Assembly: GCF_044324875.1 (NCBI RefSeq)
Contig: NZ_CP172188.1
DNA: 64,000 bases
DNA from: Escherichia coli
GTDB taxonomy: Bacteria > Pseudomonadota > Gammaproteobacteria > Enterobacterales > Enterobacteriaceae
Strand: one strand, 5' to 3'
A program made the translations under genes and the position numbers. Within the stretch, counting starts at the first letter, position 1, and each line of letters opens with the position of its first letter. The notes beneath the pieces are model-generated. The model was given only the letters and a program-made list of their open reading frames with translations. It searched no databases and was not told where the DNA came from. Positions 4,001 to 48,200 of the stretch are shown here, piece after piece.

Positions 4001-7000
4001 CGCCAGCGCCGTTATCGTTCAGCGCATGAACATGATCCCGTCGTCAAATTGGCGAACGGTCATCATGACAAAAGAGCAATTCGCGTCTATCCCGCTACGA
4101 GAAGAAACCATTGAGGAAAACTCACAGCAAGCGGTCTTTAATGCTGTGGAAATGGGGCGTCTTGACCTGGCATCTGGCAAACACCGTGACGCGCAGAAGA
4201 AGAACAAGATTAAGGACCAGGCCGCAAATACCGGTACAACGAAGAAGCAGAATATCCCGTACTTTGAGGATATGAACTTCGATAGCGTAATTGCCGACGA
4301 AGGGCATAACTACCGCAACTCCTTTAGCGCCGGGCGCGAAGCGGGGCAACTGGCATATTTGCCTAACCCGGCAGTATCCAAAATGGCCCGCGACATGGCT
4401 GTAAAAGCTGCGTACATGATGAAACGCAACAACGGGCGTGGTGTGGTTATGCTGACGGCAACACCGCTGGTGAACAGCCCGATTGATGCTTTCAACATGC
4501 TGTCTACTGTCATTCCGCAGGAAGAGTGGATGCGCATGGGTATTGTTACGCCGGATGATTTCGTTCGCGTGTTCGGTAAAACAGCCACAGTTCAGGTTCA
4601 GAAAATTTCCGGTGAGGTGGAAGAGAAGCAGGGACTGGTGGGCTTCCAGAACCTGGATGGTCTGCGTGGTATTTTCCATCGCTGGACTACTCTGAAGACT
4701 GCTGCGGACGTCGGGGCGACGGTAAAAATCCCTGATATTGTCGAGAATACCTTGCAGATCCCGATGACAGGAGAGCAAGAGGCCATTTACGAAGAACTTC
4801 GTAAGCGTGCACAGGAGTTAAGTAGTAAAGATGCGCTGACGGTCGATGAAAACGGGCATATCACAAACGAAAAACCGGATGATTTCATCTTCTCCATCAT
4901 CCGCGACATGGATAAGGTTGCTATAGATCCTGATCTGTATGCCAGTGCGATTACATTCCAGTTCCCCGTTGAGCTTGCAGACAAGGTAAAAGCTATTGCT
5001 GATGCCCTGCCAAAAGTAGCTGGCGGTAAAGTGGCAGATGATGTAGACGAGGCCGAAGAAGATGGCGCTGGTGGGCTGGTCAGTACGCGTACCAGCAAGG
5101 TAGTGAAGACCACCTTTAGCGAACATCCGTCGCATGTTGAAATACGTGCTGGCATTGAACTGGAAGCTGAAATACTGAAGGCCATTGCGGCTGCCGGTAT
5201 TGATATGCAGCAGGTATCACACCCCATCCCGCCGAAGTATGCCGCGCTGATCGAAAACCTTCGTGAAGGTCTGAAGAACGGTAAACAAATCGTCTTCATT
5301 GATGAAAAAGCCCAGCACCAGAAGCTGCGCCGTATTATTGCCAGTGCACTGCAAATGCCGGAGCAGGAGATAGGCATTATCAATGCGACGACAGTTAGCC
5401 AGGCTGGCGGCGTCAAGCTGAAGAAGGTGAATAAGCCGACTGAACCTACGCCAAATAAAAACGGTGAATACAAAGAAGGTGCATGGGAAACCTACTACAG
5501 CAAACTTGCCCAATATGAGGATTATCTCTCAGCTAAAAATGATGCTGGCCTTGAGGGCATGGAAGGTATTGCCGCCGACTATAACGAAGGTCGCACGCGC
5601 ATCATAATCTGTAACAAGAAGGCTGAAGTAGGTATTAACTTGCACATCGGGACAACCGATATCCACCATCTGACACTACCCTGGACTCCTGCCAGTATCG
5701 ACCAACGTAATGGGCGCGGCGCTCGGGTAGGCTCACCACAAGAAAAGGTCAATGTTCACTACTATTGTGGCAAAGGCACATTTGATGACTTCCGTCTGGA
5801 TACGCTGAAACGTAAGAAGGACTGGATCAATATGGTGATGACCTCCGACATGTCAGAGATCGCCAATGGTGATGCGGATGACGCAGATGAACGCGCCATT
5901 ATGCTGGCGGCAAATCCGGAAGAACGCCGTGCAATCATGAGTCGTCAGGCGCAAGAGCGTGAAGAACGTCTGAAACTGAAAGCCCTACGCGAAGCCAATA
6001 ATGCTCTCGATAACTACCTGAAAGCGGCGAATGCTGCCGGGAAAGATATCGGCATGATGGAGACAGAACTGAAAAGCGCGATGGAGCAGGTAGAGCATTA
6101 CCAGCGCAATCTTGACGACCTGATTAAAGCGGGGACGAACAGGAACGGGCAGAAATATGTTCTGGAACAGTTGCGAGACTACAGAAAACGTGTGCGGGAG
6201 CTACGCTTTGCGATCACCAGAGCTAAAGACGCTGACACCGTTATGAAACGTTCTCGTGGTGATCTGGAACGTGCGATTAAAGCCGGGGTTCTGGAGCTTG
6301 ATGCCGATGTATTGCAGAACCCACAGGAGTATGTACGCACTGAGAAAAATATCTTGTTGCACAAGGGCAGCCATTATCGCGCGATCATCGATGAGAATCA
6401 CAATACGACAGCAATTGTTCGTGTTACCGCCATTGATGCGGAAAGGGGCGGGTGTACGTGCCGCATATCCTGGCTGGATGTGGCTAGTCGTTACTCTCGT
6501 TCTCCGGGGACGGCATTATTTTTGCCCTTTAACCTGATAATTGAATCGGTAACCTTTGAAGAGGGAGTTGCAGAATCGCGTGAAACAGCTGCACGTGGTG
6601 TTCAATGCCACCAGCTATCAACAACACTTACGCGCGATCAGTTCTATGATGCTATTCGCAATGGGGTAATGAATGTCACTGCCGGGAAGCCTAGTAGAGT
6701 ATGGGGCGGTGGTTCAGCTATTAAATACTGGGCTTATCGCACCGATGATGGTCAGATTGCACTGTCATCGGCTTATGATGGCGTAATAGGTCAAAAAATC
6801 GGGCGAGCATCGGATATAGCGCCTGAGCGGTGGATTTACCCTGATGGCAACGATGAGGCGCTGAAGCGTGAAGTGGCAAAAATACAAGCCAGTGATAACC
6901 CGCTGAATGTCGTGGACGGCGAGGGATTCCTCCAGGCATTGTATGGATATGATTACATCCAGGGAATGCAGGCATGGGGGTCACAGGCCACGATGGATGA

Positions 7001-36180: not shown

Positions 36181-36796
36181 GAAGTGGGAAGCCTCGCCCG
36201 ACAGGGCGGGGAGCAGTCACATAATTCATTGCGTCATTAGGTAGCGGATTAGTTGGTTCGGCATTTGCCAGGGATTGAGATAAACGCGTGATTAATTTGA
36301 CCATTCTCCGCTGCCGGAGGTTGTATCCTTCAGCTAAAGACAGGTAACTGGAAAGGGTATTGCTTAAGCGGGCGCGAAGCTGATCCGTGCCGTGACATTC
36401 AATAGCAACATCACGTAACGCATCGACCAGTTCACGGTAAAGATGCGCTGCCATTCTGCAATCTGTGTCAGATGGTGCTTCATAAATTACCGTCAACCCC
36501 AGTTTTTCAGCCAGAGCGTGTTCTGCACGTGCTCCTGCGGACACATCCCATCCCTTAAGCAGATAGATCGCATCAGCAGAACGCACCATTGCCAGGCAAA
36601 TATCCATGTATTCACTCTGGCAAAGGCCACCAGGTAACACAGCTGGATTCAGAACGATATGCCCTTCAGACATCAGCTCGCTCGCTTTCGCATTAAACGC
36701 CGCACGGTTGTAGTCTGGATAACCAGTCATCGGCCCCGCGATGTAAATTTTCAAAACACGTTTCACCATCAAAATTTCCCCAAAATCGTGACGCAA
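36077..36796 (-). pseudogene. DUF4406 / nucleoside 2-deoxyribosyltransferase-like gene with 3' end replaced by IS sequence
   Basis: N-terminal KIYIAGPMTGYPDYN Rossmann-like motif; the last ~50 codons (below ~36226) read into the IS right end. Confidence 0.45.
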
Positions 36797-36961
36797 AACA
36801 TAAGCACTGCGAAAAGCTCAATACCAAGCTCAAGTAGCGCCAACGCCCCGAAAAACAACACATAGAACAGGCCAATCTCATTCACAGATGGCTGGTGGAT
36901 CGCACTTAAAGCTATAAGCATCATGTCCTCCAAACAGTTATCAGGAATGATATTAATGTTT

Positions 36962-36992
36962 TGTGTTAGAAAATCAATTTTGAATATCTAAC
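36962..36992. promoter_or_regulatory. operator-like motif pair upstream of ref
   Basis: TGTGTTAGAAAATCAATTTTG plus inverted ATATCTAAC; 50-80 nt upstream of ref. Confidence 0.5.
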
Positions 36993-37041
36993 TGTTTTGA
37001 TCAATCATAGAAAAATAGCTGAAAAGTAAGAGGCAGCCATC

Positions 37042-37620
37042 ATGCAGAAACAGAGCTATTGGGAGAAACAGAGACAAAAAGCCATGCAAAAATTGGCTGA
37101 CCCAGCCTGGCGAGAGGAACAAAGGGCAAAGCGCCTTCAACAAGCTCAACGCCAGCAGCAGCGAGCGAGAGAAAAAGCCGCATCGCCTGAATATCGGCAA
37201 AAGAAAATTGAAAAAGCAAAGCAATATGAACAGCGGAGAAAAGATAAAGCTGTATCCGCTCCGCCCAAAAAAACACGCACGTCACGCGGCCTGAAGGGCA
37301 GATCACTCACAGCCGATGAACGCCGGATACAGACCGCTATCGGTACTCTCCCCTGCATTGCCTGCCATATTCACGGGCAACATAGCCCAGTGGTATCCCT
37401 GCACCATATCTTCGGGAGAACGGCAGAGAACGCACATAAATATGTCCTCCCTTTGTGTAAATGGCACCACCAGTACGCAGCGCCAGCCGAGGTCCGAGAA
37501 CAATATCCCTGGCTGGTCCCTGTTCATGCTGATGGAAAAATAGGCGGAAAAGCAGATTTCATACGGCACAATGCCGATGAAATGGCGTTGTATCAGATGG
37601 CGATTGAATTAATAAATTAG
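37042..37620 (+). CDS. ref: Ref recombination-enhancement HNH-family endonuclease
   Basis: 192 aa; basic N-terminus then SRGLKGRSLTADERRIQTAIGTLPCIACHIHG ... CKWHHQYAAPAEVREQYPWLVPVHADG, matching P1 Ref as I recall it. Confidence 0.85.
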   Translation: MQKQSYWEKQRQKAMQKLADPAWREEQRAKRLQQAQRQQQRAREKAASPEYRQKKIEKAKQYEQRRKDKAVSAPPKKTRTSRGLKGRSLTADERRIQTAIGTLPCIACHIHGQHSPVVSLHHIFGRTAENAHKYVLPLCKWHHQYAAPAEVREQYPWLVPVHADGKIGGKADFIRHNADEMALYQMAIELIN

Positions 37621-37631
37621 TTTTCTAACAT
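37611..37631 (-). promoter_or_regulatory. operator-like motif copy (reverse strand ATGTTAGAAAACTAATTTATT); candidate control site for the downstream immunity module
   Basis: Overlaps the ref stop codon; consensus copy. Confidence 0.5.
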
Positions 37632-37951
37632 TTTAAGTTGAATTGTAAATTTCTCCGATGTACATTCACTACCGATTGGCACACCGGTCAACTTTTTGAG
37701 ACAAACTGTTTAGTTTTTCGTATTATTGCCCCCGCCATACCTATGGCGGTGCAATATAGGTGGCTGAAAAGCCCCCGTTGACTCACGGTGTTCCAGCCTT
37801 TATTGCGCCGCCACCAGACCGTGGAACAGTCGATGGCGGCTCCGAAAGCAAGGAGTCACTACACTATGAACAACTACAGTCTTTTCCCATCACTCGTCGT
37901 CCACCACTCACGCGATAATCTGCATTCTTTATTCGCGCTGGGGGAGTCAAA

Positions 37952-38119
37952 ATGACTGTTCGCTACCTCAACTTTCAAATCAAGAACATTACTGGCGGTT
38001 GCTATGACTGGTTTGTCACTCTCGGAAAAGAAGTGATTACCGGGAAGCTGGATGAAGTGAAAGCTAAAGCAATGGCCTACGCCTGCAAGCAAGCCCGGAA
38101 GAAATCCGCCAAAGCATAA
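37952..38119 (+). CDS. possible small protein (55 aa)
   Basis: ATG with GGGGGAG RBS 7 nt upstream; below the ORF-track size cutoff. Confidence 0.3.
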   Translation: MTVRYLNFQIKNITGGCYDWFVTLGKEVITGKLDEVKAKAMAYACKQARKKSAKA

Positions 38120-38139
38120 AATACTGACTGTTGCGCCCT

Positions 38140-38430
38140 GGCATTATCGTGGGGTATATTTCTACGGCACCTTAGAAAAACGGGTGCCGGGATTGGAACC
38201 CCGGATAATGCAAAAGGCGACACAGACGCCGAAAGCGTCTTTTCTTGTGTCATGCCATCGCACAGCCATACGTAGCGTTTAGCTCAGAGATCAATGGTAG
38301 TGCTGGCTGGGCTGCCGAAAGGCAGGCCGGTTCCCTTTTGCGCCGGTAGTTCCAACCCAGTCAGTGCTACCGCCATTGAGATTGGAACCTCACGCGGTAG
38401 CTCCTTAAATTAGCAAAAGGAGGCTGCCAA
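38140..38430 (+). ncRNA. candidate c4-like antisense RNA / leader region of immunity module A
   Basis: Structured leader upstream of the icd-like gene: direct repeats GATTGGAACC (38192, 38383) and a partly complementary GTTCCAACC (38346); hairpin GACGCCGAAAGCGTC + T-run near 38223. Confidence 0.3.
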
Positions 38431-38431
38431 T

Positions 38432-38647
38432 ATGGCTACTATCCCTACCCCAACTCATTCTGAATTTATCTGGCGTTTCTATTCCTGCCAAAAACACCTG
38501 TATATCTGCGTCATGGCTGCAACCGAAGCAGAAGCTCGTTCATACCTTCCTGAAGAACCCTGCATTTTTGCCGCACGCTTCACTCTTGATGCGATGGAGA
38601 TCCTCAATTACTGGAATCTGCCAATGAACTGCGTGGAGGTGCACTGA
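38432..38647 (+). CDS. Icd-like small protein (module A)
   Basis: 71 aa; paralog of 62161..62385 (shared SEFIWRF, QKH, AATE-EARS); stop overlaps ant start (TGATG) as for icd-ant coupling in P1. Confidence 0.5.
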   Translation: MATIPTPTHSEFIWRFYSCQKHLYICVMAATEAEARSYLPEEPCIFAARFTLDAMEILNYWNLPMNCVEVH

Positions 38648-39588
38648 TGAATCTGTCCATCTCTCAAAAAGCGACAATGACCAGCATTGAGATCGCGGAA
38701 CTGGTAGGAAGTCGCCAAGATAGTGTGAAGAGAACTATCGAAACACTGGCTAAAAAGAGTGTGATCCAATTTCCACAATCTGTGGAAATTGAAAATAAAC
38801 AATCAGTTGGCCCTCGTCGATTTTCCAAGGCTTACATCTTTGAAGGCGAACAAGGCAAGCGCGATAGTATCATTGTCGTCGCACAGCTCTCTCCGGAATT
38901 CACCGCCCGGCTGGTGGACCGCTGGCGCGAACTGGAGAATGCCAGGGGACCGTTAAAATCAAAAGCCGAAATCCTGGCTGAAATGGCGCAAATGCATCTT
39001 GAGCATGAACGCCGGATCAACGCCGTAAATGCCCAGGTAGCCGAGGTATCAGCACAAGTATCGATGGTCGCTGAAACACTCGAGCAAATAAAGAAAGGCA
39101 ATATGCCGGAAGGCTACATTGGCTACCGCCAGCTGGCGGCGAAATGCGGCCTGACTGAAGCCAAATGTCGCAACCTGGTTAACGCTTACCGGATACCCAC
39201 TGATACGCATGAGTTTTTGACTCCCGACGGTTTGCTTGCGCGACGCTCAATTGTGGCCCTGGCCCCCTTCCGGAAAGCCTTTAAGCAGGTTATGTCGGAG
39301 GCAGAACCACGCAACAAACGCTGGTATCATCCAAAGATGGGGATGTTTCAGGCAATCCACCATCCTGTGCCTGAAAGTCCAAAGGCAAACCTGTCGTTGC
39401 ATACCGCCAGAGAGAGGATTAAAACAGGGTATGCAATCGTATGCCGTCGAGCATCTTGGCCTGAAGGTGTATGGGTATGGCCCGAAGGTGGATCACGAAA
39501 GCACTGGCGCACTATCCGGGATGGGAAAATCCATGCGATTGATTTAGCTCCAGAGGATGTTGTTGCTACGGACTGGATTGTTAGTTAA
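38647..39588 (+). CDS. antirepressor-like protein: Rha-family N-terminal domain fused to DUF2829/Tad2-like C-terminal domain (module A)
   Basis: 313 aa; N-terminal MTSIEIAELVGSRQDSVKRTIE; C-terminal CRRASWPEGVWVWPEGG ... DLAPEDVVATDWIVS. Confidence 0.65.
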   Translation: MNLSISQKATMTSIEIAELVGSRQDSVKRTIETLAKKSVIQFPQSVEIENKQSVGPRRFSKAYIFEGEQGKRDSIIVVAQLSPEFTARLVDRWRELENARGPLKSKAEILAEMAQMHLEHERRINAVNAQVAEVSAQVSMVAETLEQIKKGNMPEGYIGYRQLAAKCGLTEAKCRNLVNAYRIPTDTHEFLTPDGLLARRSIVALAPFRKAFKQVMSEAEPRNKRWYHPKMGMFQAIHHPVPESPKANLSLHTARERIKTGYAIVCRRASWPEGVWVWPEGGSRKHWRTIRDGKIHAIDLAPEDVVATDWIVS

Positions 39589-39596
39589 TTACTGTT

Positions 39597-39620
39597 GCCC
39601 CGGCCTGTCCGGGGCTTTAA
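39597..39620 (+). terminator. rho-independent terminator
   Basis: GCCCCGGCCTGTCCGGGGCTTT. Confidence 0.6.
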
Positions 39621-39647
39621 CTACTAAATAACCGGATTCTCCGCACG

Positions 39648-39932
39648 ATGAAGAAAATAGATTTCACTTACTCTGCTGCCACAATCCAGCGACGTTTCAG
39701 TCTCATAAGGGAAGTGGAACTATCAAAAAACTGGTATCAAATTCTACTGGATGAAGAGTTTTCACTGATGGTTATAGCAGAAAAATTGGCTATGCCGAAT
39801 GACCGGCACAAGGTCATAGCCAGCCTGGATCTGGTGACAAACAGATACTGGGAATCCGAGGAACTACTTGAAGTTGGCTTGATACGCGAGATGATAGAAC
39901 AGGCTGTTCCCCTCCACTTACAGCAACCATAA
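39648..39932 (+). CDS. hypothetical protein
   Basis: 94-aa ORF, ATG start. Confidence 0.4.
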   Translation: MKKIDFTYSAATIQRRFSLIREVELSKNWYQILLDEEFSLMVIAEKLAMPNDRHKVIASLDLVTNRYWESEELLEVGLIREMIEQAVPLHLQQP

Positions 39933-40068
39933 TTGAAAGGTCTTAACGATAGTCTGCCACGAATAGTTACTTTCACTGCCTAAAGTTATTTAATTGCATT
40001 ACAAAGTGTAAATTAGTAACATTAGAATCTCACACAGCACTATAACTATATGTTTTTTATGTAAAAGG

Positions 40069-40428
40069 ATGATAATCGTGGCTACTAAAATTAAACTTGA
40101 AAACCCTCAAACTGGCGAATCAATCACCGGTTTTTATGGTTTTTCCTGGACTACATTCTTGTTTGGTGCTTTTCCAGCTTTGTTCAGGAAAGACTTTATA
40201 ACTTTTATTGGGGTATTCGTAGTGATGCTGATACTGGCATTCCTCACAGCCGGAATTGGCCCGTGGATTGCCTCATTTATCTGGGCGTTCATGTATAATA
40301 AATATTTCACCGTAAATAAGATAAAACAAGGCTTCATTTTTGCTGGTTCTCACACAGAAAATGAGTTGGCTGCTAGCAAGCTAGGATTGTCATTAAATCA
40401 AAACAACTGCAAAACTATTACCGAGTAA
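40069..40428 (+). CDS. small integral membrane protein
   Basis: 119 aa with two hydrophobic helices; AT-rich locus. Confidence 0.5.
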   Translation: MIIVATKIKLENPQTGESITGFYGFSWTTFLFGAFPALFRKDFITFIGVFVVMLILAFLTAGIGPWIASFIWAFMYNKYFTVNKIKQGFIFAGSHTENELAASKLGLSLNQNNCKTITE

Positions 40429-40468
40429 TAGCCAAAAAGCAGGCTTAATAGTAAGCCTGCTATGTCAA

Positions 40469-41290
40469 TCACGAATCTCTCTGACAATTCAGAAACATAA
40501 ACGCCCGCTTGTCTGTTAAATCCGTAACATAATACTCTCTCATGCCTGTAGGTTTTATTCTACGAGCATATACAAACTTATGAACTGGTTGTTTTTCCCC
40601 ATAACTTACATCAGTCCTAAATTCATCAACCACGCTACCATCTTTTTCGACTTCCTTCCTCACCAGCTTATTTTCTAATGCTGGCTTTAATTCGTCCATG
40701 CCACTAAAAGCATCCTGGCCTGTACTATTGCCTCGATTTCCGCGCGGCAAATCCCAGGAGAAATAAGTGCCATAGTCAGTAATCACACGATCCCAGACTC
40801 CGGTATCCCCCATATAGTTAGAGCGCTTTCCATTGTAGGTTACAGCCACTTTACAGGAGTACGTTTCTTCATTCCCTCCAGCCTTACTCGCTGTGGTTGC
40901 AGGGATATTTTGGATAGATGCGCTTACGTCATCTTGCGTTAATTCCTCAACTGGAGCAAATTCATATATGGGTGTGCCGAGGCTATTTAAATATAACTTA
41001 TATCTAACCCTAAGCGCACTTCCATCTGAGAATTCATACGTTCCCAGGCATTGGAGCTTATTTTTTTCTCTTATCTCATTGATCTGATAATAAGCATCAA
41101 TTACAGAGATTGCTTCCTGATCGTCCTTCAGCAGTTCATTATAATCATCAATTAACATCTGTCTGGTTTTAGGGGCATTGCAGTCAATTTTGCTAAAATC
41201 ATAAGCAAAGGCAAATGTGGGAACAGAGAGAGCAACAACAGTAGCAAGTATTGTTGAGGAACATCTTTTTCCATTTTTTATAAAAAACAT
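40469..41290 (-). CDS. secreted (signal-peptide) protein of unknown function
   Basis: Start ATG 41290 with GGAG RBS; N-terminal signal-like STILATVVALSVPTFAFA; AT-rich. Confidence 0.5.
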   Translation of the reverse strand: MFFIKNGKRCSSTILATVVALSVPTFAFAYDFSKIDCNAPKTRQMLIDDYNELLKDDQEAISVIDAYYQINEIREKNKLQCLGTYEFSDGSALRVRYKLYLNSLGTPIYEFAPVEELTQDDVSASIQNIPATTASKAGGNEETYSCKVAVTYNGKRSNYMGDTGVWDRVITDYGTYFSWDLPRGNRGNSTGQDAFSGMDELKPALENKLVRKEVEKDGSVVDEFRTDVSYGEKQPVHKFVYARRIKPTGMREYYVTDLTDKRAFMFLNCQRDS

Positions 41291-41530
41291 TTCATTAACT
41301 CCATACTTTACCATCTTAGCCGCGAGCGCGGTCCCTAAAACCATTAACTTCACTGCACCGTTCCTTCATGCAATCAAAATGACTTTTATGTTATAAAAAT
41401 AATCAGCCAAATCAACATGATTTAGGCCAAATGCGTATTCCGCTCTATTCGATCACGGATTGGCATCGAAGTCCGATCAGCGATTCGCATCCATTCGATC
41501 AACCGGGAACTTAACTTTTTCTACCGCTTT

Positions 41531-42286
41531 TTAACGCGTTTTTTCGCTGCTTTCCACTACCGGGGGATTTTTCCTCAGTGACTCTCCCTGAAGGACCACT
41601 CGGTGTGAGTTATGTACCAGTCTGTCCAGGATGGCATCTGCTGTTGTTGGGTTCTCCATCAGACCATGCCATTTATCTACCGGGAACTGGCTTACCACTA
41701 TCGTGCTGCTTTGTCCGTAACGATCCTCTATGAGCTCCAGAAGGTCATTACACTGGGCGTTACTTAACTGTTCCAGCCCCAGATCGTCCAGGATTAGAAC
41801 CTGTATTTTTTGCAACTGTTTCAGATATTTCAGCCAGCTGCCATCAACACGTCCCTGAGCCAGTTGTTCCAGTAATCGCCCGGTTCTACAGTACCGGACG
41901 CTGTGTTTCTGTCGACATGCCTGTTCGCCCAGCGCATTGGCTATCCAGCTCTTGCCACATCCTGTCGGACCGGTTATCAGCAGGTTTTTCCTGTGGGTTA
42001 TGTAGTGGCCGTTCAGCAGTTCTCTCATCTGTTCAGCCCGCAGACCTCTTGAGGCCGGATAGCGCAGCCCTTCCGGTGTTGCCTGGTATTTCAGGCCGGC
42101 ATTTTTTCTCAACCGTGCCACACGGCTGTTTTCCCTGCTCAGAAGCTCGTCATCAACCAGCAGCGTCAGCCTTTCCTCGAACGACAGTTCGTCGTAGGTC
42201 TGAGGCGTTTCCCGCTGCCGTATCAGGCTCCCGGCCATCGCCGGGAGTTTCAGTTGGGTCAGTTTGTTTAACAGGTTATCACTCAT
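41531..42286 (-). CDS. istB: IS21 helper ATPase IstB
   Basis: Walker A LLITGPTGCGKS, Walker B VLILDDLG; start set at MSDNLL. Confidence 0.88.
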   Translation of the reverse strand: MSDNLLNKLTQLKLPAMAGSLIRQRETPQTYDELSFEERLTLLVDDELLSRENSRVARLRKNAGLKYQATPEGLRYPASRGLRAEQMRELLNGHYITHRKNLLITGPTGCGKSWIANALGEQACRQKHSVRYCRTGRLLEQLAQGRVDGSWLKYLKQLQKIQVLILDDLGLEQLSNAQCNDLLELIEDRYGQSSTIVVSQFPVDKWHGLMENPTTADAILDRLVHNSHRVVLQGESLRKNPPVVESSEKTR

Positions 42287-42302
42287 ACTGTTGTTCCTTC
42301 TG

Positions 42303-43838
42303 TCAGTGGTAGTAGCCCGGACCACGCAGGTTTTCATGCTCTGAAGCATATGCCGGATGTTGTTCGCCCTGGCGGGATAATGGAAGCTCCAGGTTCTCCC
42401 GATGGTGACGCAGCAGATTGTCGATAAAGCGTCTGTCAGGGGCGTTATAGTGCAGGGCAACGTAACAGGCCTTTTCCAGCCGTTCCGGGCCGTATTTTTT
42501 CTGAAGTGCCAGCAGCCCCAGAACTGCACGATAAGCCAGTTCCGGATGGGGTTTTGCCTTCAGCATGGATTCAACCACCCGGCCTGTGGACGGGCCCGTA
42601 CGTTTTCCCTGCTCGATCAGGCGTTCCGGTGTCCATGTCCCGTGCTGCCGGTGGCGCTCTGGCATGTGAAGCGGATTGGTTGTGTGTTTATATTCATGTG
42701 TGCTGCGCGGATGTTGCGCCACACACTGCCCCTTGTGCCAGAGCTGTACCACCGACTGCCCCGCCTTCAGTGACAGACGCTGACCGACCAGTTCGTGTGG
42801 AACGGAGTACCAGTGACGGGCATATTCAACGTGGTAGTCAGGGCCAACCTTCACAGCTTTGTATTCCGTGTATTCATAAGGTGCCAGAGGCAGCGGAGAG
42901 AGTGCTGGCGCATCCAGTATGCGGAAGCGTTCTGCACGGGTTTGATTGCCGTACCCCTTCATTGGCCGGTTATTCATGTCTGTCAGTAACTCCCTAAGGC
43001 GCGCATTCAGCGCCCTGAGCGTGTGGAAGGTTTCATTACGGATGCGGGCAAGAAGCCATCGTTCAACGATGAGGACGCCGTTTTCTGCTTTTGGTTTATC
43101 TTTAGGTTTGCGTGGTCGGGCCGGGATGATAACCGTGCCATAGTGCTCAGCCAGTGCCTGATAACTGTCGTTGATGACAGGCTCATATCGATCGGCCTTT
43201 TTCACTGCGCTTCTGAGGTTATCGGGGATGAGCAGCTTCGGTACGCCGCCCAGGAAGGTCAGGCAACGGCTGTGGGCATTTAACCATGACATCATGTCCT
43301 GACCTTCGCACGCTTCAACGTAGGTATAGTTGGACGCCCCCATTACGGCCACGAAGATTGCCACGCGGCGTATCTCACCGGTGTCCGGATTAATAACAGG
43401 AACCGTAGGACCACAGAAGTCGATAAAAAGCTTTTCGCCGGCACGATGCTCCTGGCGCATGGAGAGACGTCGCGTTTTTTTCCACTCCCGGTAGCAACGG
43501 CAGAAGTGCGAGTATCCCATCGCTTTGTTACCCGCCTGTGCCTTGTATTCCATCCACAACAGTTGCCGCGTCACACCTGGTTTTCTCATTTCCGTATCGA
43601 AGTACAACATGTCAGGCATTACAAGCTCTGATGCAAAGGTGTCTTTGGGCGGAAAAATGAGTTTCTCCAGCGTGTCATGGGATATATCAGCAGGTAATGG
43701 CCATGACAGAGAAGAGGCTTTGAAGCGGGCAAGAACCTCAAAAACGGTTGAGGCGCTGATGTGTAACGTCAGTCCGATACAACGGTTAGTCAGCTTCTTG
43801 TCGAACTTGAGCTGAAGGATCTTAAAACAGGTTTCCAT
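42303..43838 (-). CDS. istA: IS21 transposase IstA
   Basis: 511 aa from METCFKIL; N-terminal HTH and DDE-type core. Confidence 0.85.
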   Translation of the reverse strand: METCFKILQLKFDKKLTNRCIGLTLHISASTVFEVLARFKASSLSWPLPADISHDTLEKLIFPPKDTFASELVMPDMLYFDTEMRKPGVTRQLLWMEYKAQAGNKAMGYSHFCRCYREWKKTRRLSMRQEHRAGEKLFIDFCGPTVPVINPDTGEIRRVAIFVAVMGASNYTYVEACEGQDMMSWLNAHSRCLTFLGGVPKLLIPDNLRSAVKKADRYEPVINDSYQALAEHYGTVIIPARPRKPKDKPKAENGVLIVERWLLARIRNETFHTLRALNARLRELLTDMNNRPMKGYGNQTRAERFRILDAPALSPLPLAPYEYTEYKAVKVGPDYHVEYARHWYSVPHELVGQRLSLKAGQSVVQLWHKGQCVAQHPRSTHEYKHTTNPLHMPERHRQHGTWTPERLIEQGKRTGPSTGRVVESMLKAKPHPELAYRAVLGLLALQKKYGPERLEKACYVALHYNAPDRRFIDNLLRHHRENLELPLSRQGEQHPAYASEHENLRGPGYYH

Positions 43839-43941
43839 AGTGCTCCTGGATTTTCTCTTTCTGGACATTGACGTCTCCACTGGTTTAAACACGGCAATGG
43901 AGACTGTGGTGAAAAGAGTTAATTCCCGGAGTGACTGGCAG

Positions 43942-44060
43942 GATGCCAATCAATGATCGGAAGCATGCCAAATCGTGATCGATTGTGATGCCAAACTGTG
44001 ATCGGAGATGGATGCCAAATCATGATCGATTCGAATGCCAAACTGCGATCGATTCAGATG
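43942..44060. repeat. five tandem ~23-bp repeats at the IS21-family end
   Basis: GATGCCAATCAATGATCGG / CATGCCAAATCGTGATCG / GATGCCAAACTGTGATCGG / GATGCCAAATCATGATCG / AATGCCAAACTGCGATCG. Confidence 0.7.
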
Positions 44061-44281
44061 CCATTTTGCAGCCAAATTTCTGTCAAAAAATAAAATCCAC
44101 AAAAAGTGGTTGACACTATTTTGGAAATCACAAACTGCACATAATCCATCGCGCTAACGGCTCCCGTTGAAGGTTCTTTTGACGATTAACTTTCAGCCGA
44201 AGCGCGGTAGGGAGTCATAACGCCAAAGCAGGCCGCCATGTGCGGCCTTTTTTTGTATCCGTCATCCGTGGAGGAAGGACA

Positions 44282-44935
44282 ATGGAAAAGATCGCAATAT
44301 TCAGCCTGACCACCAGCAAGCCTCAAATGCTCACTGCAATACTGAAAGACGGTGCTCTCATTATTAACGAAGTAAAACCCCTTCCCGCGTCAGCATTGGA
44401 GCAAAAGCAAAAAATTCCTCCAGCTATAGCAGCCCTGCGGAAAAGCAAATTTAAGGTACTGGTAGACGAAATTACGCCAACGATCTCCGCTGGCACCGGA
44501 GCAAGCCAGGTTACTCTCAAGACCCGTCATGCCGATGGCAGAGCAGCAATCATCGTCGGGATGGAAAGATACAGAGAGTTAAAACTCCAGAAGCTATTAT
44601 CCCTGCCGCAAAATAACAAAGGTGCTTTCGAAATCCCTGACTCCATCGTTGACACCGAATACAACGGTAACGGAGAAGAAGTCTACCGGGTGAACTGGCA
44701 GGATATCAGGCCGGAACATATTCTGATGGTCCTGTGTTGCTACGCGACCGTATACCACAACGTTGCCAGTGCAGATTACGTAGAGCAGATGACCGGCACA
44801 GTCGAGAAAGAGCAAAAAACAGGCATACTCGCTTCGTTCCTGTCCATTATTGGGCATGAAAAAGTTGAAGCAGGCACCTCCCAGCCAAAGTCACTGGCTG
44901 GGAAAGAAGTTGATGAAGATACCGTGATACTTTGA
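44282..44935 (+). CDS. hypothetical protein
   Basis: ORF 44240..44935; start set at MEKIAIF. Confidence 0.45.
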   Translation: MEKIAIFSLTTSKPQMLTAILKDGALIINEVKPLPASALEQKQKIPPAIAALRKSKFKVLVDEITPTISAGTGASQVTLKTRHADGRAAIIVGMERYRELKLQKLLSLPQNNKGAFEIPDSIVDTEYNGNGEEVYRVNWQDIRPEHILMVLCCYATVYHNVASADYVEQMTGTVEKEQKTGILASFLSIIGHEKVEAGTSQPKSLAGKEVDEDTVIL

Positions 44936-45271
44936 TCACATTAGTAGCTTTGTTAACTCCCTCAATACCAGGTAGAAGAGTAACAAAAACACTGACGTGG
45001 ATACCTGCTGAGTTAAAGAAGCACTAATGAATTTATTCAATAAATCAATCAGCTTATTAAAAATATTCATCTTTTCGAATCCATTCGATCGGTAAATAAC
45101 ACCCAGCTCACTATCGAGCTGGTCCACGCCTTAAGATTAATGAAAGTCACTTGTTGACAGTCAATAAATTCCAGGGTGGCGAAAAAACTCTGTCTATACG
45201 GATAGTGCTTGCATTTTACTCTTTCTGCGTGTAGCGTATATACACAGGTTGCACGCACGAATGGAATTATT

Positions 45272-45553
45272 TTGATTAAGTCATTTCGCCATAAAGGGCT
45301 TGAACGCTTTTTCAAGACAGGTTCAACCGCAGGCATTCAGGCCAAACATGCGGTTAAGCTACGCATTCAATTGACTGCGCTTAATACAGCTAAACGCCCG
45401 GACGATATGTCTGCGCCTGGATGGGAATTGCACCCTCTAAAGGGGGCGGACCTTAAAGGTCACTGGGCAATATCGGTAAACGGTAACTGGCGACTTACCT
45501 TCCGATTTGAAGGAGAAGACGCAATTCTAGTTGACTATCAGGATTATCATTGA
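45272..45553 (+). CDS. higB: HigB-family toxin (RelE/ParE superfamily, killer-protein type)
   Basis: TTG start; [13 protein letters not shown] ... WELHPLKG ... [21 protein letters not shown]. Confidence 0.75.
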
Positions 45554-45561
45554 GGAACACT

Positions 45562-45843
45562 ATGAGTCGTATGCATAATCCCGCGCATCCAGGCGCGGTT
45601 CTTCGTGAATATTTGGGAGACATGTCAGTCACAGACGCCGCTGCGGCATTAGGCATTACTCGCACGGCGCTTTCCCGAATTCTGAATGAAAAAGCAGGTA
45701 TATCTGCTGATATGGCACTTCGTCTGGAGTCCGCTCTTGGAACCAGTGCCGAAATGTGGACCGGTATGCAATCCCAGTATGAGCTTTGGGTTGCTTCGCA
45801 AACCACTCGCCCAAACATCCGTCCATTATTTTTCCACGCATAA
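45562..45843 (+). CDS. higA: HigA-family antitoxin (XRE HTH)
   Basis: GAGGA RBS; [44 protein letters not shown]. Confidence 0.75.
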
Positions 45844-45935
45844 TTTCACAGCGTCACCAGGCCTGGTGACGCTGCTTTCTCGCATTTCACACCCTGCATA
45901 CAGTTTTCCCCAGGTTATGACTGAGGGGCTTTGTT

Positions 45936-46265: not shown

Positions 46266-47448
46266 TTTCCTGAAAAACCAGGACGGGCGCTATATCACTG
46301 ACGGCCTGTCCTCTAAGGACTTCACGCGTTTATTCGACCTTATCAGGAAAGAACAAACCCGTAAGCGCCGGCAAGCTCACCGGACGCTGACGCCAGGTAG
46401 ACTGAGGAACAAATCCGCCGAAGATATTCTCAAGTTAGGGAAGAAAAAAGGCGGCACGTTCTTCACGCGAGACGACCTGAAAGGTTTCGAAAAGCTACGG
46501 AGTAAAACGCGCGAAAAATATGACAGCAAGACGGCTGGCATCACATACGCCCAGCTGGTGGCATCCAGCCAGGCAATCGATATTAAGCGTGCAAATAACG
46601 CCGTGGATGACGGATCTGGTATCAAAAGAGCTACACCCGTATCTCTTCGCCACAATGTGATTAATATCCGCGTAGAAGCATCGGATATATCCGTCCACCA
46701 GCACCATATCGTCCGGATACGCTTTGAAGAATGGGATCAGATGGTTGATGATATCGCAGAAGACGATAAATCAGCTCTCAAAATCACTAAATCACTGTGC
46801 GCCGGGCGAGTGTCTTTCGATTGTGACTGTGGTCGTCATCAATACTGGTATCGTTACATCGCCACTGCGGGTAACTTTGCCCTGGCACCGCCAAAAGAAT
46901 ACGCCTATCCAAAAGTTCGCAACCCGAAGCTGCAAGGCGTCGCCTGTAAACACGTGATCCACTCAATGACGCGGTTACAGTCCGCCAGTTGGCAAATGAG
47001 TATTGCTCGTGCGCTACAAAAGGCTGCAACGCAAATTGCATTTGGTGACGATCGCCGCCGTACAACCAAACACTTCTCAAAAGAAGACGAGAAGGAGTTT
47101 AATCGCAATCGTAGCAGTAAAACAAACGTTGAAGCCGCCAAACGCGAATGGAGGCTCTATCAGAAGCGCCAGGCAGCTTTAAGTACAAAACTGGCAAAGG
47201 ACAACGGCAATATCGACAAGCTACGTGACCAATTGACCAGGGCCAGAAAGTTGTCAGACGCACAGAAAAAACGGGCGGCTGCAAAAGAAGCGGCCTTGCA
47301 ACGTGAGAAACAGAAAAATAAGGAACTTCAGCAACGCCTTGCCGATCAGTTCGCACTGAAGAAGCAGGCGTTCATTGATGCGCTTGTCATGGCTGGAACA
47401 CCACCAGCACAAGCTGAAAAAATGTTCATGGAGTACATAAAAAATTAA
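46258..47448 (+). CDS. hypothetical protein with SWIM-like zinc-finger motif and basic coiled-coil C-terminus
   Basis: 396 aa; C-x-C ... C-x-H pattern in FDCDCGRHQYW ... ACKHVIH. Confidence 0.45.
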   Translation: MPDFLKNQDGRYITDGLSSKDFTRLFDLIRKEQTRKRRQAHRTLTPGRLRNKSAEDILKLGKKKGGTFFTRDDLKGFEKLRSKTREKYDSKTAGITYAQLVASSQAIDIKRANNAVDDGSGIKRATPVSLRHNVINIRVEASDISVHQHHIVRIRFEEWDQMVDDIAEDDKSALKITKSLCAGRVSFDCDCGRHQYWYRYIATAGNFALAPPKEYAYPKVRNPKLQGVACKHVIHSMTRLQSASWQMSIARALQKAATQIAFGDDRRRTTKHFSKEDEKEFNRNRSSKTNVEAAKREWRLYQKRQAALSTKLAKDNGNIDKLRDQLTRARKLSDAQKKRAAAKEAALQREKQKNKELQQRLADQFALKKQAFIDALVMAGTPPAQAEKMFMEYIKN

Positions 47449-47459
47449 CAAAGGTGGGT

Positions 47460-48200
47460 TTATCCCACCTTTTTATTAGCATCGCATTTAATTTTTTCAA
47501 GTGAATCAGAAAGCTTTGAGAGAATCTCCTCAAGTGTCTCCCTGTCATTTGTATCACCCGAACGAAAAGATGAGTTTTTCACGGCAGTAAAAAATTCATA
47601 AAAATCATCCAACGAATTTAAGCTCTCACCTTTCTCTCTATATAATTTAATAACATGACGGATATCGCTATCCACACATTCAATCTGTTCCCTAACTTCT
47701 TCTACCTTTCTTTTTAATGATTCATGTTCTTCTTTTTCTTTTTCAAGACGCTCTTCAACGTCTTTCCGTTTCTTAGTAAGATCATTAATGTCTCTGTTAA
47801 TTTTTCTTACTTGTTCTTTTTTGTCTTCAATTTTATCTATCTCTCTCAATTTAGCGTATATTGTGCCAGTCACCATAGAAATTAGTAAAGTTAACATTGG
47901 GGCTAATATTGAAGCCACAACACCATAAATAAAAGGCAAGACAAAATGAGCTACGAATGAGGGTACAAAAACATTCCCAAATAATGGAATCTTTTCCCCA
48001 ACAAACACCATAGATAATGTATACATAACATCATCTTTTGACTTCAACAATATAAATATATCTCGCCAGTTAGAAATTAAAAATGAAATAAAAATGTAGG
48101 CAAAAACCTTATTAAACAACTTATCTTTTACAGCATCTTCTATCAGATTTTGGGCGGATGATTTTTCATTTTCCTTTTCTATTGATGAATCAGTGCTCAT
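47460..48200 (-). CDS. membrane protein with cytoplasmic coiled-coil domain (AT-rich cargo)
   Basis: 246 aa; transmembrane stretches (FAYIFISFLISNW; FVAHFVLPFIYGVVASILAPMLTLLISMV) then E/K-rich heptad region. Confidence 0.5.
   Translation of the reverse strand: MSTDSSIEKENEKSSAQNLIEDAVKDKLFNKVFAYIFISFLISNWRDIFILLKSKDDVMYTLSMVFVGEKIPLFGNVFVPSFVAHFVLPFIYGVVASILAPMLTLLISMVTGTIYAKLREIDKIEDKKEQVRKINRDINDLTKKRKDVEERLEKEKEEHESLKRKVEEVREQIECVDSDIRHVIKLYREKGESLNSLDDFYEFFTAVKNSSFRSGDTNDRETLEEILSKLSDSLEKIKCDANKKVG

Follow-up and report, generated by a model that had tools for sequence, protein, structure and literature searches.

Gene content of the interval between ant and mat

In a 64,000-nucleotide stretch of Escherichia coli DNA (contig NZ_CP172188.1 of RefSeq assembly GCF_044324875.1; hereafter the window), positions 39600-41432 constitute an accessory slot between the immunity-I-like genes icd-ant and the late gene mat, occupied by three small AT-rich genes that code for a PmgF-like protein, the small membrane protein orf80 and the secreted protein orf79, respectively. 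By nucleotide comparison the window is shown to come from a D6-type member of the P1-like phage-plasmids. Positions 39400-41432 are 96% identical to Escherichia phage D6 (MF356679 / NC_050154) and up to 100% identical to non-mobilisable plasmids of about 90 kb from E. coli and Salmonella, e.g., pE2863-2 (100%), and positions 36222-41432 together with 44071-44997 are collinear with both D6 and pE2863-2 at 94-99%, both flanks included. The features of the slot and the insertion sequence (IS) next to it are as follows, with gene names taken from D6 and protein lengths in amino acids (aa).

40469-41290, minus strand: orf79 (= D6 orf79), Sec-exported two-domain protein of 273 aa; mature protein of about 27.9 kDa with an isoelectric point of 5.0
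orf79, residues 1-29: signal peptide; 30-116: SimB-like domain; 117-137: disordered linker; 141-273: beta-barrel
40069-40428, plus strand: orf80 (= D6 orf80), small inner-membrane protein of 119 aa over these coordinates (D6 identity, homologs, AlphaFold2 model)
39648-39932, plus strand: pmgF-like gene (= D6 orf81), 94 aa (D6 annotation; phrog_7349, E 3e-53)
39597-39615, plus strand: GC-rich hairpin GCCCCGG-CCTGT-CCGGGGC after the ant/Rha stop codon (read from the sequence)
40438-40461, no strand assigned: hairpin common to the convergent genes orf80 and orf79 (terminator scan; 10-pair stem, then TTTTTGG)
41291-41432, minus strand: 142 bp of sequence left upstream of orf79, which the IS separates from the remainder of the native intergenic region
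41433-44070, minus strand: ISSso4-like IS21-family element of 2638 bp with istA and istB, outside the islet (alignment breakpoints against IS-free relatives)

An earlier reading of this DNA, made from the sequence alone, had described 39600-41400 as an AT-rich islet with two divergently oriented genes, one for a membrane protein and one for a secreted protein, and had suggested that the pair was laterally acquired cargo next to an IS21-family element. With respect to base composition, the windowed check bears this out: the GC content of 39600-41400 is 39.9% against a mean of 48.1% for the window, which is about 2.9 standard deviations below the mean and the 2nd percentile of all 1.8-kb segments (standard deviation 2.8%). 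Along the sequence, the GC fraction is about 0.50-0.53 in ant (38647-39588), drops to 0.36-0.44 over 39800-41400 and recovers to 0.50-0.58 within the IS. The GC content of whole genes and of their third codon positions (GC3) is 0.38 and 0.41 for the membrane-protein gene and 0.40 and 0.35 for the secreted-protein gene, compared to about 0.50 and 0.50 for ant, ref and mat. Since the interval lies at the 2nd percentile, since only one other patch of the window (about 46400-48200) is equally low, and since GC3 is low in both genes, the drop is real and no chance fluctuation.

Both claimed genes exist: orf80 has many homologs and a confident AlphaFold2 model, and orf79 has a start preceded by GGAG and a classic Sec signal. 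The interval also contains the third, pmgF-like gene at 39648-39932 (+). Also, the orientation of the two genes is not divergent, as 40069-40428 (+) and 40469-41290 (-) converge on the common hairpin at 40438-40461. Because the T-tract of this hairpin is found on the minus strand only, it is a terminator for orf79. The observation was thus partly confirmed, and its interpretation, as outlined in the following sections, is partly supported.

A variable accessory slot in D6-type phage-plasmids

Phage D6 and about 56 phage-plasmids have the gene order icd-ant-pmgF-orf80-orf79-mat with no IS in it. In the D6 record, icd is followed by a Rha-type anti-repressor, orf81, orf80, orf79 and mat, and then by baseplate and tail genes; orf81 is labelled 'similar to P1 pmgF', orf80 is a hypothetical protein 'similar to p492 of phage 121Q', and orf79 carries the label 'putative superimmunity accessory function, similar to P1 simB'. 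The protein identity to D6 is 90% for orf79 and 100% for orf80. D6 and the plasmid prophages pE2863-2 and pYU39_89 agree in genes, order and flanks (icd-ant and mat, respectively), whereas in the present copy an ISSso4-like element interrupts the sequence 142 bp upstream of orf79 and slight differences occur elsewhere, e.g., an additional higBA-like gene pair past mat. As sequence and annotation are public for D6 and many plasmids, including the 'simB-like' label, the feature is already known. Phage-plasmids of the D6 type are common in E. coli and Salmonella of livestock and human origin.

The content of the slot varies considerably. Of the 119 plasmids in PLSDB with a D6-type mat, only 56-57 carry the islet. 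In one D6-like plasmid (L004) a lone gene (6001-6876) lies directly between mat and ant, the product of which has the same C-terminal domain as orf79 joined to another N-terminal domain, and neither a pmgF-like gene nor a membrane-protein gene is present in its slot. In pSL26_91 (L015, NZ_CP032492; 1322-5037) the slot consists of five other genes, one of them dCTP-deaminase-like (PF22769, E 1e-30), with zero PADLOC matches for this alternative cargo; this agrees with the substitution of the simB region noted in a published analysis of D6-like elements (PMC6799933). A more distant element of 88 kb (L007) has a relative of orf79 with 57% identity behind a different gene of 202 aa. The interval between ant and mat is therefore a slot in which accessory genes are swapped in the D6-type lineage, and its recognition as such is modestly new. 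Because of these varying contents, the earlier intuition of accessory, exchanged DNA fits the slot and not the IS: the islet is accessory and AT-rich, but a tie to the IS21-family element is not supported, since IS-free relatives carry the same segment.

The adjacent IS21-family element

Judged from its boundaries, the IS is a later, recent simple insertion in the intergenic region between orf79 and mat, 142 bp upstream of orf79. The alignment to the relatives stops at 41432 and restarts at 44071, with 7 bases counted twice, and direct repeats GCCAAAT are found at 41426-41432 and 44071-44077 (6 bp, GCCAAA, if the IS begins with TG at 41432). The 2638-bp unit occurs in 100% identical copies on many conjugative plasmids, where it is annotated as IS21-family istA and ISSso4-family istB.

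That the islet was brought by, or mobilised with, this element would be in line with their adjacency and with the AT-rich composition. However, the islet sits at the same place in the IS-free D6 and in about 56 plasmids, and the IS is complete and has its own target duplication of 6-7 bp, so that it is a simple insertion of which the islet is not the cargo. In addition, no PLSDB record among the matches listed spans the insertion junction, the best matches ending at 41432. A role of the IS in bringing in the islet is, in consequence, almost certainly to be dismissed. Neither a second IS copy nor an IS end brackets 39600-41432 as in a composite transposon, and the islet lies outside the single IS. 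This removes a false lead, as the islet is a known, uncharacterised part of D6-type phage-plasmids instead of IS-borne cargo.

As a separate observation, transcription of istA and istB points toward the start of orf79, and read-through could now drive this gene.

Domain structure of the secreted protein orf79

The start of orf79 is the ATG at 41290 already assumed in the sequence-only reading, with GGAG 8 nt upstream and with homologs that begin at the signal peptide. The signal peptide itself, likewise claimed before, is borne out by an n-region with K5, K8 and R9, a hydrophobic core at residues 12-25 and the cleavage motif AFA|YD. On these sequence features orf79 is shown to carry a Sec export signal, and the mature protein would be soluble and located in the periplasm.

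The AlphaFold2 model of orf79 shows what are predicted to be two independently folding domains, most of them at a predicted local distance difference test (pLDDT) above 90, connected by the disordered linker 117-137. The SimB-like N-terminal domain is modelled as one helix packed on a four-stranded sheet with a cystatin-like predicted fold, and the C-terminal domain as an all-beta barrel of a rare kind. Each domain has one cysteine pair, C37/C81 and C146/C269, respectively, of which the former is kept in P1 SimB and in most SimB-like homologs and the latter in all barrel homologs but one.

The family is rare, with 11 clusters in a set of 5.8 billion sequences and 29 clusters among 1.84 billion representatives, and its members fall into two groups. 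Those of the first, of which P1 SimB is the type, are stand-alone proteins of 86-148 aa that align to residues ~20-116; one such SimB-like gene is a solitary gene of a bacterial chromosome, flanked by those for an oligopeptide transporter and a LysR regulator. Members of the second group align only to residues ~125-271 and are either stand-alone (145-170 aa) or placed behind unrelated N-termini; they are found on phage-like contigs, ParM/StbA plasmids and a chromosomal islet. The barrel is joined to three other N-termini, and SimB-like and barrel domains each occur alone as well. A loop of the barrel has the invariant residues F-x-[WY]-x3-[RH]-G-x-[RG]-G-[ND]-S-T-G, the part G-x-[RG]-G-[ND]-S-T-G of which reads GNRGNSTG in orf79 (residues 185-192). 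A profile search with the barrel domain returned zero further relatives, profile searches of PDB sequences found nothing, and a Foldseek comparison of the orf79 model with viral structures retrieved uncharacterised proteins only. The only family-scan hit for orf79, a Lactamase_B_2 match below the cutoff (E 0.006), was dismissed as noise. The dissection of orf79 into domains as well as the rarity and the conserved loop of the barrel are modestly new.

Relation to the P1 sim region

P1 SimB aligns over its full length (residues 2-111) with orf79 at 45% identity (E 3e-26), both cysteines included, and only the N-terminal domain of orf79 takes part in this match. In the P1 record, simA, simB and simC adjoin c4-icd-ant and all three products have signal peptides; simC is labelled 'superimmunity' and simB 'putative accessory function'. 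Work by Kliem and Dreiseikelmann in 1989 and by Maillou and Dreiseikelmann in 1990 reportedly ascribed exclusion, a block after adsorption, to the processed product of the open reading frame (ORF) that is now simC. With the P1 sim genes orf79 shares the setting of an exported protein beside an immunity-I/antirepressor region, at a distance of 0.9 kb from ant here and with a barrel-type gene directly beside ant in L004, and it shares the homology to SimB including the cysteine pair. In contrast, P1 SimB is a stand-alone protein of 111 aa, whereas orf79 fuses the SimB-like domain to a 130-aa barrel absent from P1, and orientation and position relative to ant are unlike those of the P1 sim genes.

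A homolog of SimC, the defining effector, could not be found: orf79 gave a BLASTP E value of 0.78 against SimC, and the best tblastn E value over the whole window was 1.9; for SimA it was 1.6. The previous analysis of D6-like elements likewise lists a simB homolog for these plasmids and no SimC or SimA homolog (PMC6799933). Since the window lacks a SimC homolog, the assignment of orf79 to the P1 Sim system as such fails, which leaves a similar genomic setting and the homology to an accessory protein that is itself uncharacterised. The 'simB homolog' that the literature cites as the superinfection-exclusion gene of the D6-like elements is a SimB-like domain fused to a very rare barrel, without the proven P1 effector SimC.

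In a metagenomic phage-like contig (L009, 5001-7639), a distant barrel protein of 383 aa (P0143) is encoded two genes ahead of one for a tRNA_anti-like OB-fold protein of PF12869 (E 5e-10). In the search for SimC-like partners, P1 SimC itself was seen to resemble this family only weakly, with an E value of 1e-3 below the cutoff. Barrel proteins and SimC-like OB-proteins may thus be associated repeatedly, but this hint is too weak to build on.

The membrane protein orf80

The gene orf80 probably starts at the GTG at 40078, giving a protein of 116 aa, because the family opens with MATKI and AAGGA lies upstream. It has 183 homolog clusters and belongs to phrog_4915 (E 3e-47), a PHROG of no known function. 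Proteins of 121Q-type lytic jumbo phages annotated as HrgC are ~54-58% identical, and relatives are also present in Lactobacillus phages. Solitary copies (~54-73% identical) are found in assemblies of Pantoea, Cedecea, Mangrovibacter, Enterobacter and Duganella, and in Cedecea the homolog lies in the same ordinary metabolic neighbourhood across several strains. Such close homologs at ordinary chromosomal loci touch on the housekeeping homology that the sequence-only reading had named as counting against acquired cargo.

Some of the chromosomal homologs are named DUF2628 by UniRef. Pfam and PADLOC (both at E <= 1) as well as NCBIfam gave no match for orf80; in particular, the Pfam model of DUF2628, PF10947, did not match orf80 at E <= 1 and none of 41 family members at E <= 0.1. 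The predicted fold, however, is shared with this family. The AlphaFold2 model (pLDDT 92.5) comprises an N-terminal beta-hairpin, short helices at 27-39, the hydrophobic helices 43-59 and 63-86 and a C-terminal helix, and in a Foldseek comparison with BFVD it is placed on phage DUF2628/PF10947 proteins with a probability of 1.0, template modelling (TM) scores of 0.63-0.76 (0.73-0.76 for the best superpositions) and E values down to 6e-6. The model thus shows orf80 as a predicted DUF2628/HrgC-like inner-membrane hairpin protein. Given the placement of R40 and K41 ahead of the helical hairpin and of K78, K83 and K85 behind it, both ends would be cytoplasmic with almost nothing in the periplasm, exposing the short turn 60-62 only. 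The literature on DUF2628 holds no functional data.

The connection to HrgC is made through the phage 121Q protein (54% identity), which was aligned as 'Escherichia HrgC' in PMC4615327. HrgC is the name of a Helicobacter pylori gene for which a type I toxin-like membrane role has been speculated upon, as the authors state, without experimental support (PMC4615327). In line with this speculation and with the HrgC annotation of the jumbo-phage homologs, orf80 might be a membrane-active toxin or abortive-infection effector, to which orf79 would be unrelated. However, at 116 aa and with a conserved folded N-terminal hairpin and C-terminal helix it is no minimal toxic peptide, its solitary chromosomal copies are stable and occupy the same locus across Cedecea strains, and it has no PADLOC match, so that a toxin is very improbable.

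The sequence-only reading had treated the membrane protein and the secreted protein as a pair. The two genes are adjacent, both are low in GC, and they occur together in D6 and about 56 plasmids, and it is conceivable that orf80 as membrane anchor or sensor and orf79 as periplasmic effector form a two-component envelope system comparable to Imm and Sp of phage T4. Imm and Sp are small phage envelope proteins which halt the DNA entry of related phages, the former as a membrane protein and the latter by inhibiting the tail lysozyme. The comparison is one of working principle only, as no sequence relationship was detected and all PHROG matches are of unknown function, and in contrast to T4 the present element is temperate and its larger protein is predicted to reside in soluble form in the periplasm. 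T4 superinfection exclusion is the subject of Lu & Henning 1994, as cited in PMC13128918.

Several observations argue against such a pair. The genes are convergent and hence not co-transcribed, an orf79-type protein occurs without orf80 in L004, and jumbo phages, Lactobacillus phages and chromosomes have relatives of orf80 but no orf79. Furthermore, the predicted hairpin of orf80 would expose just its 60-62 turn on the putative periplasmic side, and no PHROG superinfection-exclusion family was matched. As the genes converge, as each is found without the other, and as orf80 appears to be nearly unexposed to the periplasm, a functional pair has to be considered very unlikely. Instead, the absence of orf80 from L004, its occurrence in jumbo and Lactobacillus phages without an orf79 relative and its solitary position in Cedecea and Duganella chromosomes suggest that orf80 is most likely an independent gene of putative membrane function which would have no partner in orf79.

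Possible functions of orf79

Taken as a whole, the best explanation of the locus is a D6-type accessory slot into which an IS was inserted later, with orf79 as an envelope factor of the sim kind and orf80 as an independent gene; its chance of being correct in this form may be put at about even. With respect to orf79 alone, envelope-acting superinfection exclusion is plausible and a reasonable guess, because the only relative from a characterised locus is SimB of the P1 superimmunity region. According to this proposal, orf79 would be a prophage-expressed periplasmic envelope factor of the P1 sim (superimmunity) kind, which might bind either the periplasm-exposed part of the injection machinery of a related incoming phage or a host component used by that machinery, so that DNA entry would fail after adsorption. 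Of the swappable N-terminal domain and the constant barrel, one would then confer specificity and the other would serve as effector or anchor. That orf79 acts in this way in the periplasm of the lysogen against the DNA entry of related phages, with one domain for specificity and the other for a conserved activity, is a tentative suggestion with a chance somewhat below even.

Besides the lack of SimC and SimA homologs, several points weigh against an exclusion function. The sole link to exclusion runs via SimB, the own role of which is unproven, and SimB-like proteins are also encoded by isolated chromosomal genes outside prophages, and barrel-domain proteins are encoded on ParM/StbA plasmids and in a chromosomal islet. 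Scans of orf79 against Pfam, NCBIfam and PADLOC (the latter at E <= 1) gave nothing significant. Finally, no promoter was found: the remaining 142 bp (41291-41432) have no consensus sigma-70 site, and promoter scans returned no candidate upstream of orf79 or orf80, neither in the window nor in pE2863-2 with its intact intergenic region. Expression may also have been changed by the IS.

The main rival explanation assumes that orf79 is a periplasmic inhibitor of lysozymes, lytic transglycosylases or proteases of the host environment or of competitors, and thus a factor of lysogenic conversion. It is suggested by a generic fold resemblance of the predicted structure only and is rather unlikely.

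Alternatively, orf79 and orf80 might serve the lytic cycle of the phage in morphogenesis, injection or lysis timing, given that mat and the pmgF-like neighbour are annotated in that way and that relatives of orf80 occur in strictly lytic phages. However, about half of the plasmids with a D6-type mat lack the islet in recognisable form, and virion or assembly proteins do not usually carry a Sec signal peptide. In P1, moreover, simA, simB and simC are dispensable for lytic growth (PMC10695390). A lytic function must accordingly be regarded as quite unlikely.

Returning to exclusion, a more far-reaching version assumes an undescribed family of periplasmic gatekeepers on phage-plasmids and plasmids, with the SimB-like domain and the GNRG(D/N)STG barrel as its interchangeable modules, which would block incoming phage (or plasmid) DNA, e.g., by binding or inhibiting the transglycosylase/tape-measure tail tip. 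While this version is speculative and unlikely, it would make the 'accessory' SimB of P1 itself a component of an effector of this sort.

Hairpins, regulatory signals and further loci

At the ant edge of the islet, where the sequence-only reading had placed the ant terminator, the GC-rich hairpin at 39597-39615 is indeed present and is possibly the terminator of ant; however, its stem is followed only by TTTA, a weak T-tract, and the terminator scan did not call it. For the protein encoded by the pmgF-like gene next to it, neither Pfam nor NCBIfam gave a match, and the PADLOC scan yielded nothing significant. P1-type C1 operators (ATTGCTCTAATAAATTT, <=3 mismatches) were searched for in the window with zero hits. 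At the other end of the slot, just upstream of mat, a strong GC hairpin followed by seven T is found on the plus strand (L002 8186-8204, corresponding to about 44230-44248 of the window), which could separate the late gene from the accessory slot as a terminator or attenuator.

Upstream of the slot, the last ~65 residues of the ant/Rha protein (38647-39588), encoded by 39385-39585, are 34% identical (E 1e-10) to a stand-alone protein of 109 aa (L007:5857-6186). As this protein nearly reaches the cutoff of the Pfam family Tad2-like / DUF2829 (Thoeris anti-defence 2-like; E 4.6e-5, 24.3 bits against a cutoff of 25), Ant may carry a Tad2-like C-terminal module.

Past mat, positions 44997-45872 have no counterpart in D6 or pE2863-2 and contain a HigB/RelE-like ORF of 114 aa (45209-45553) overlapping an ORF of 97 aa (45550-45843) that resembles a helix-turn-helix antitoxin. 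This looks like an additional toxin-antitoxin pair that has been inserted where mat adjoins the baseplate genes. In the second AT-rich patch of the window (46400-48200), the GC content goes down to 37.8%; it includes an ORF of 246 aa on the minus strand (47460-48200), which corresponds to the hypothetical protein orf73 of D6; its N-terminal half is hydrophobic, and its C-terminal half is charged and coiled-coil-like.

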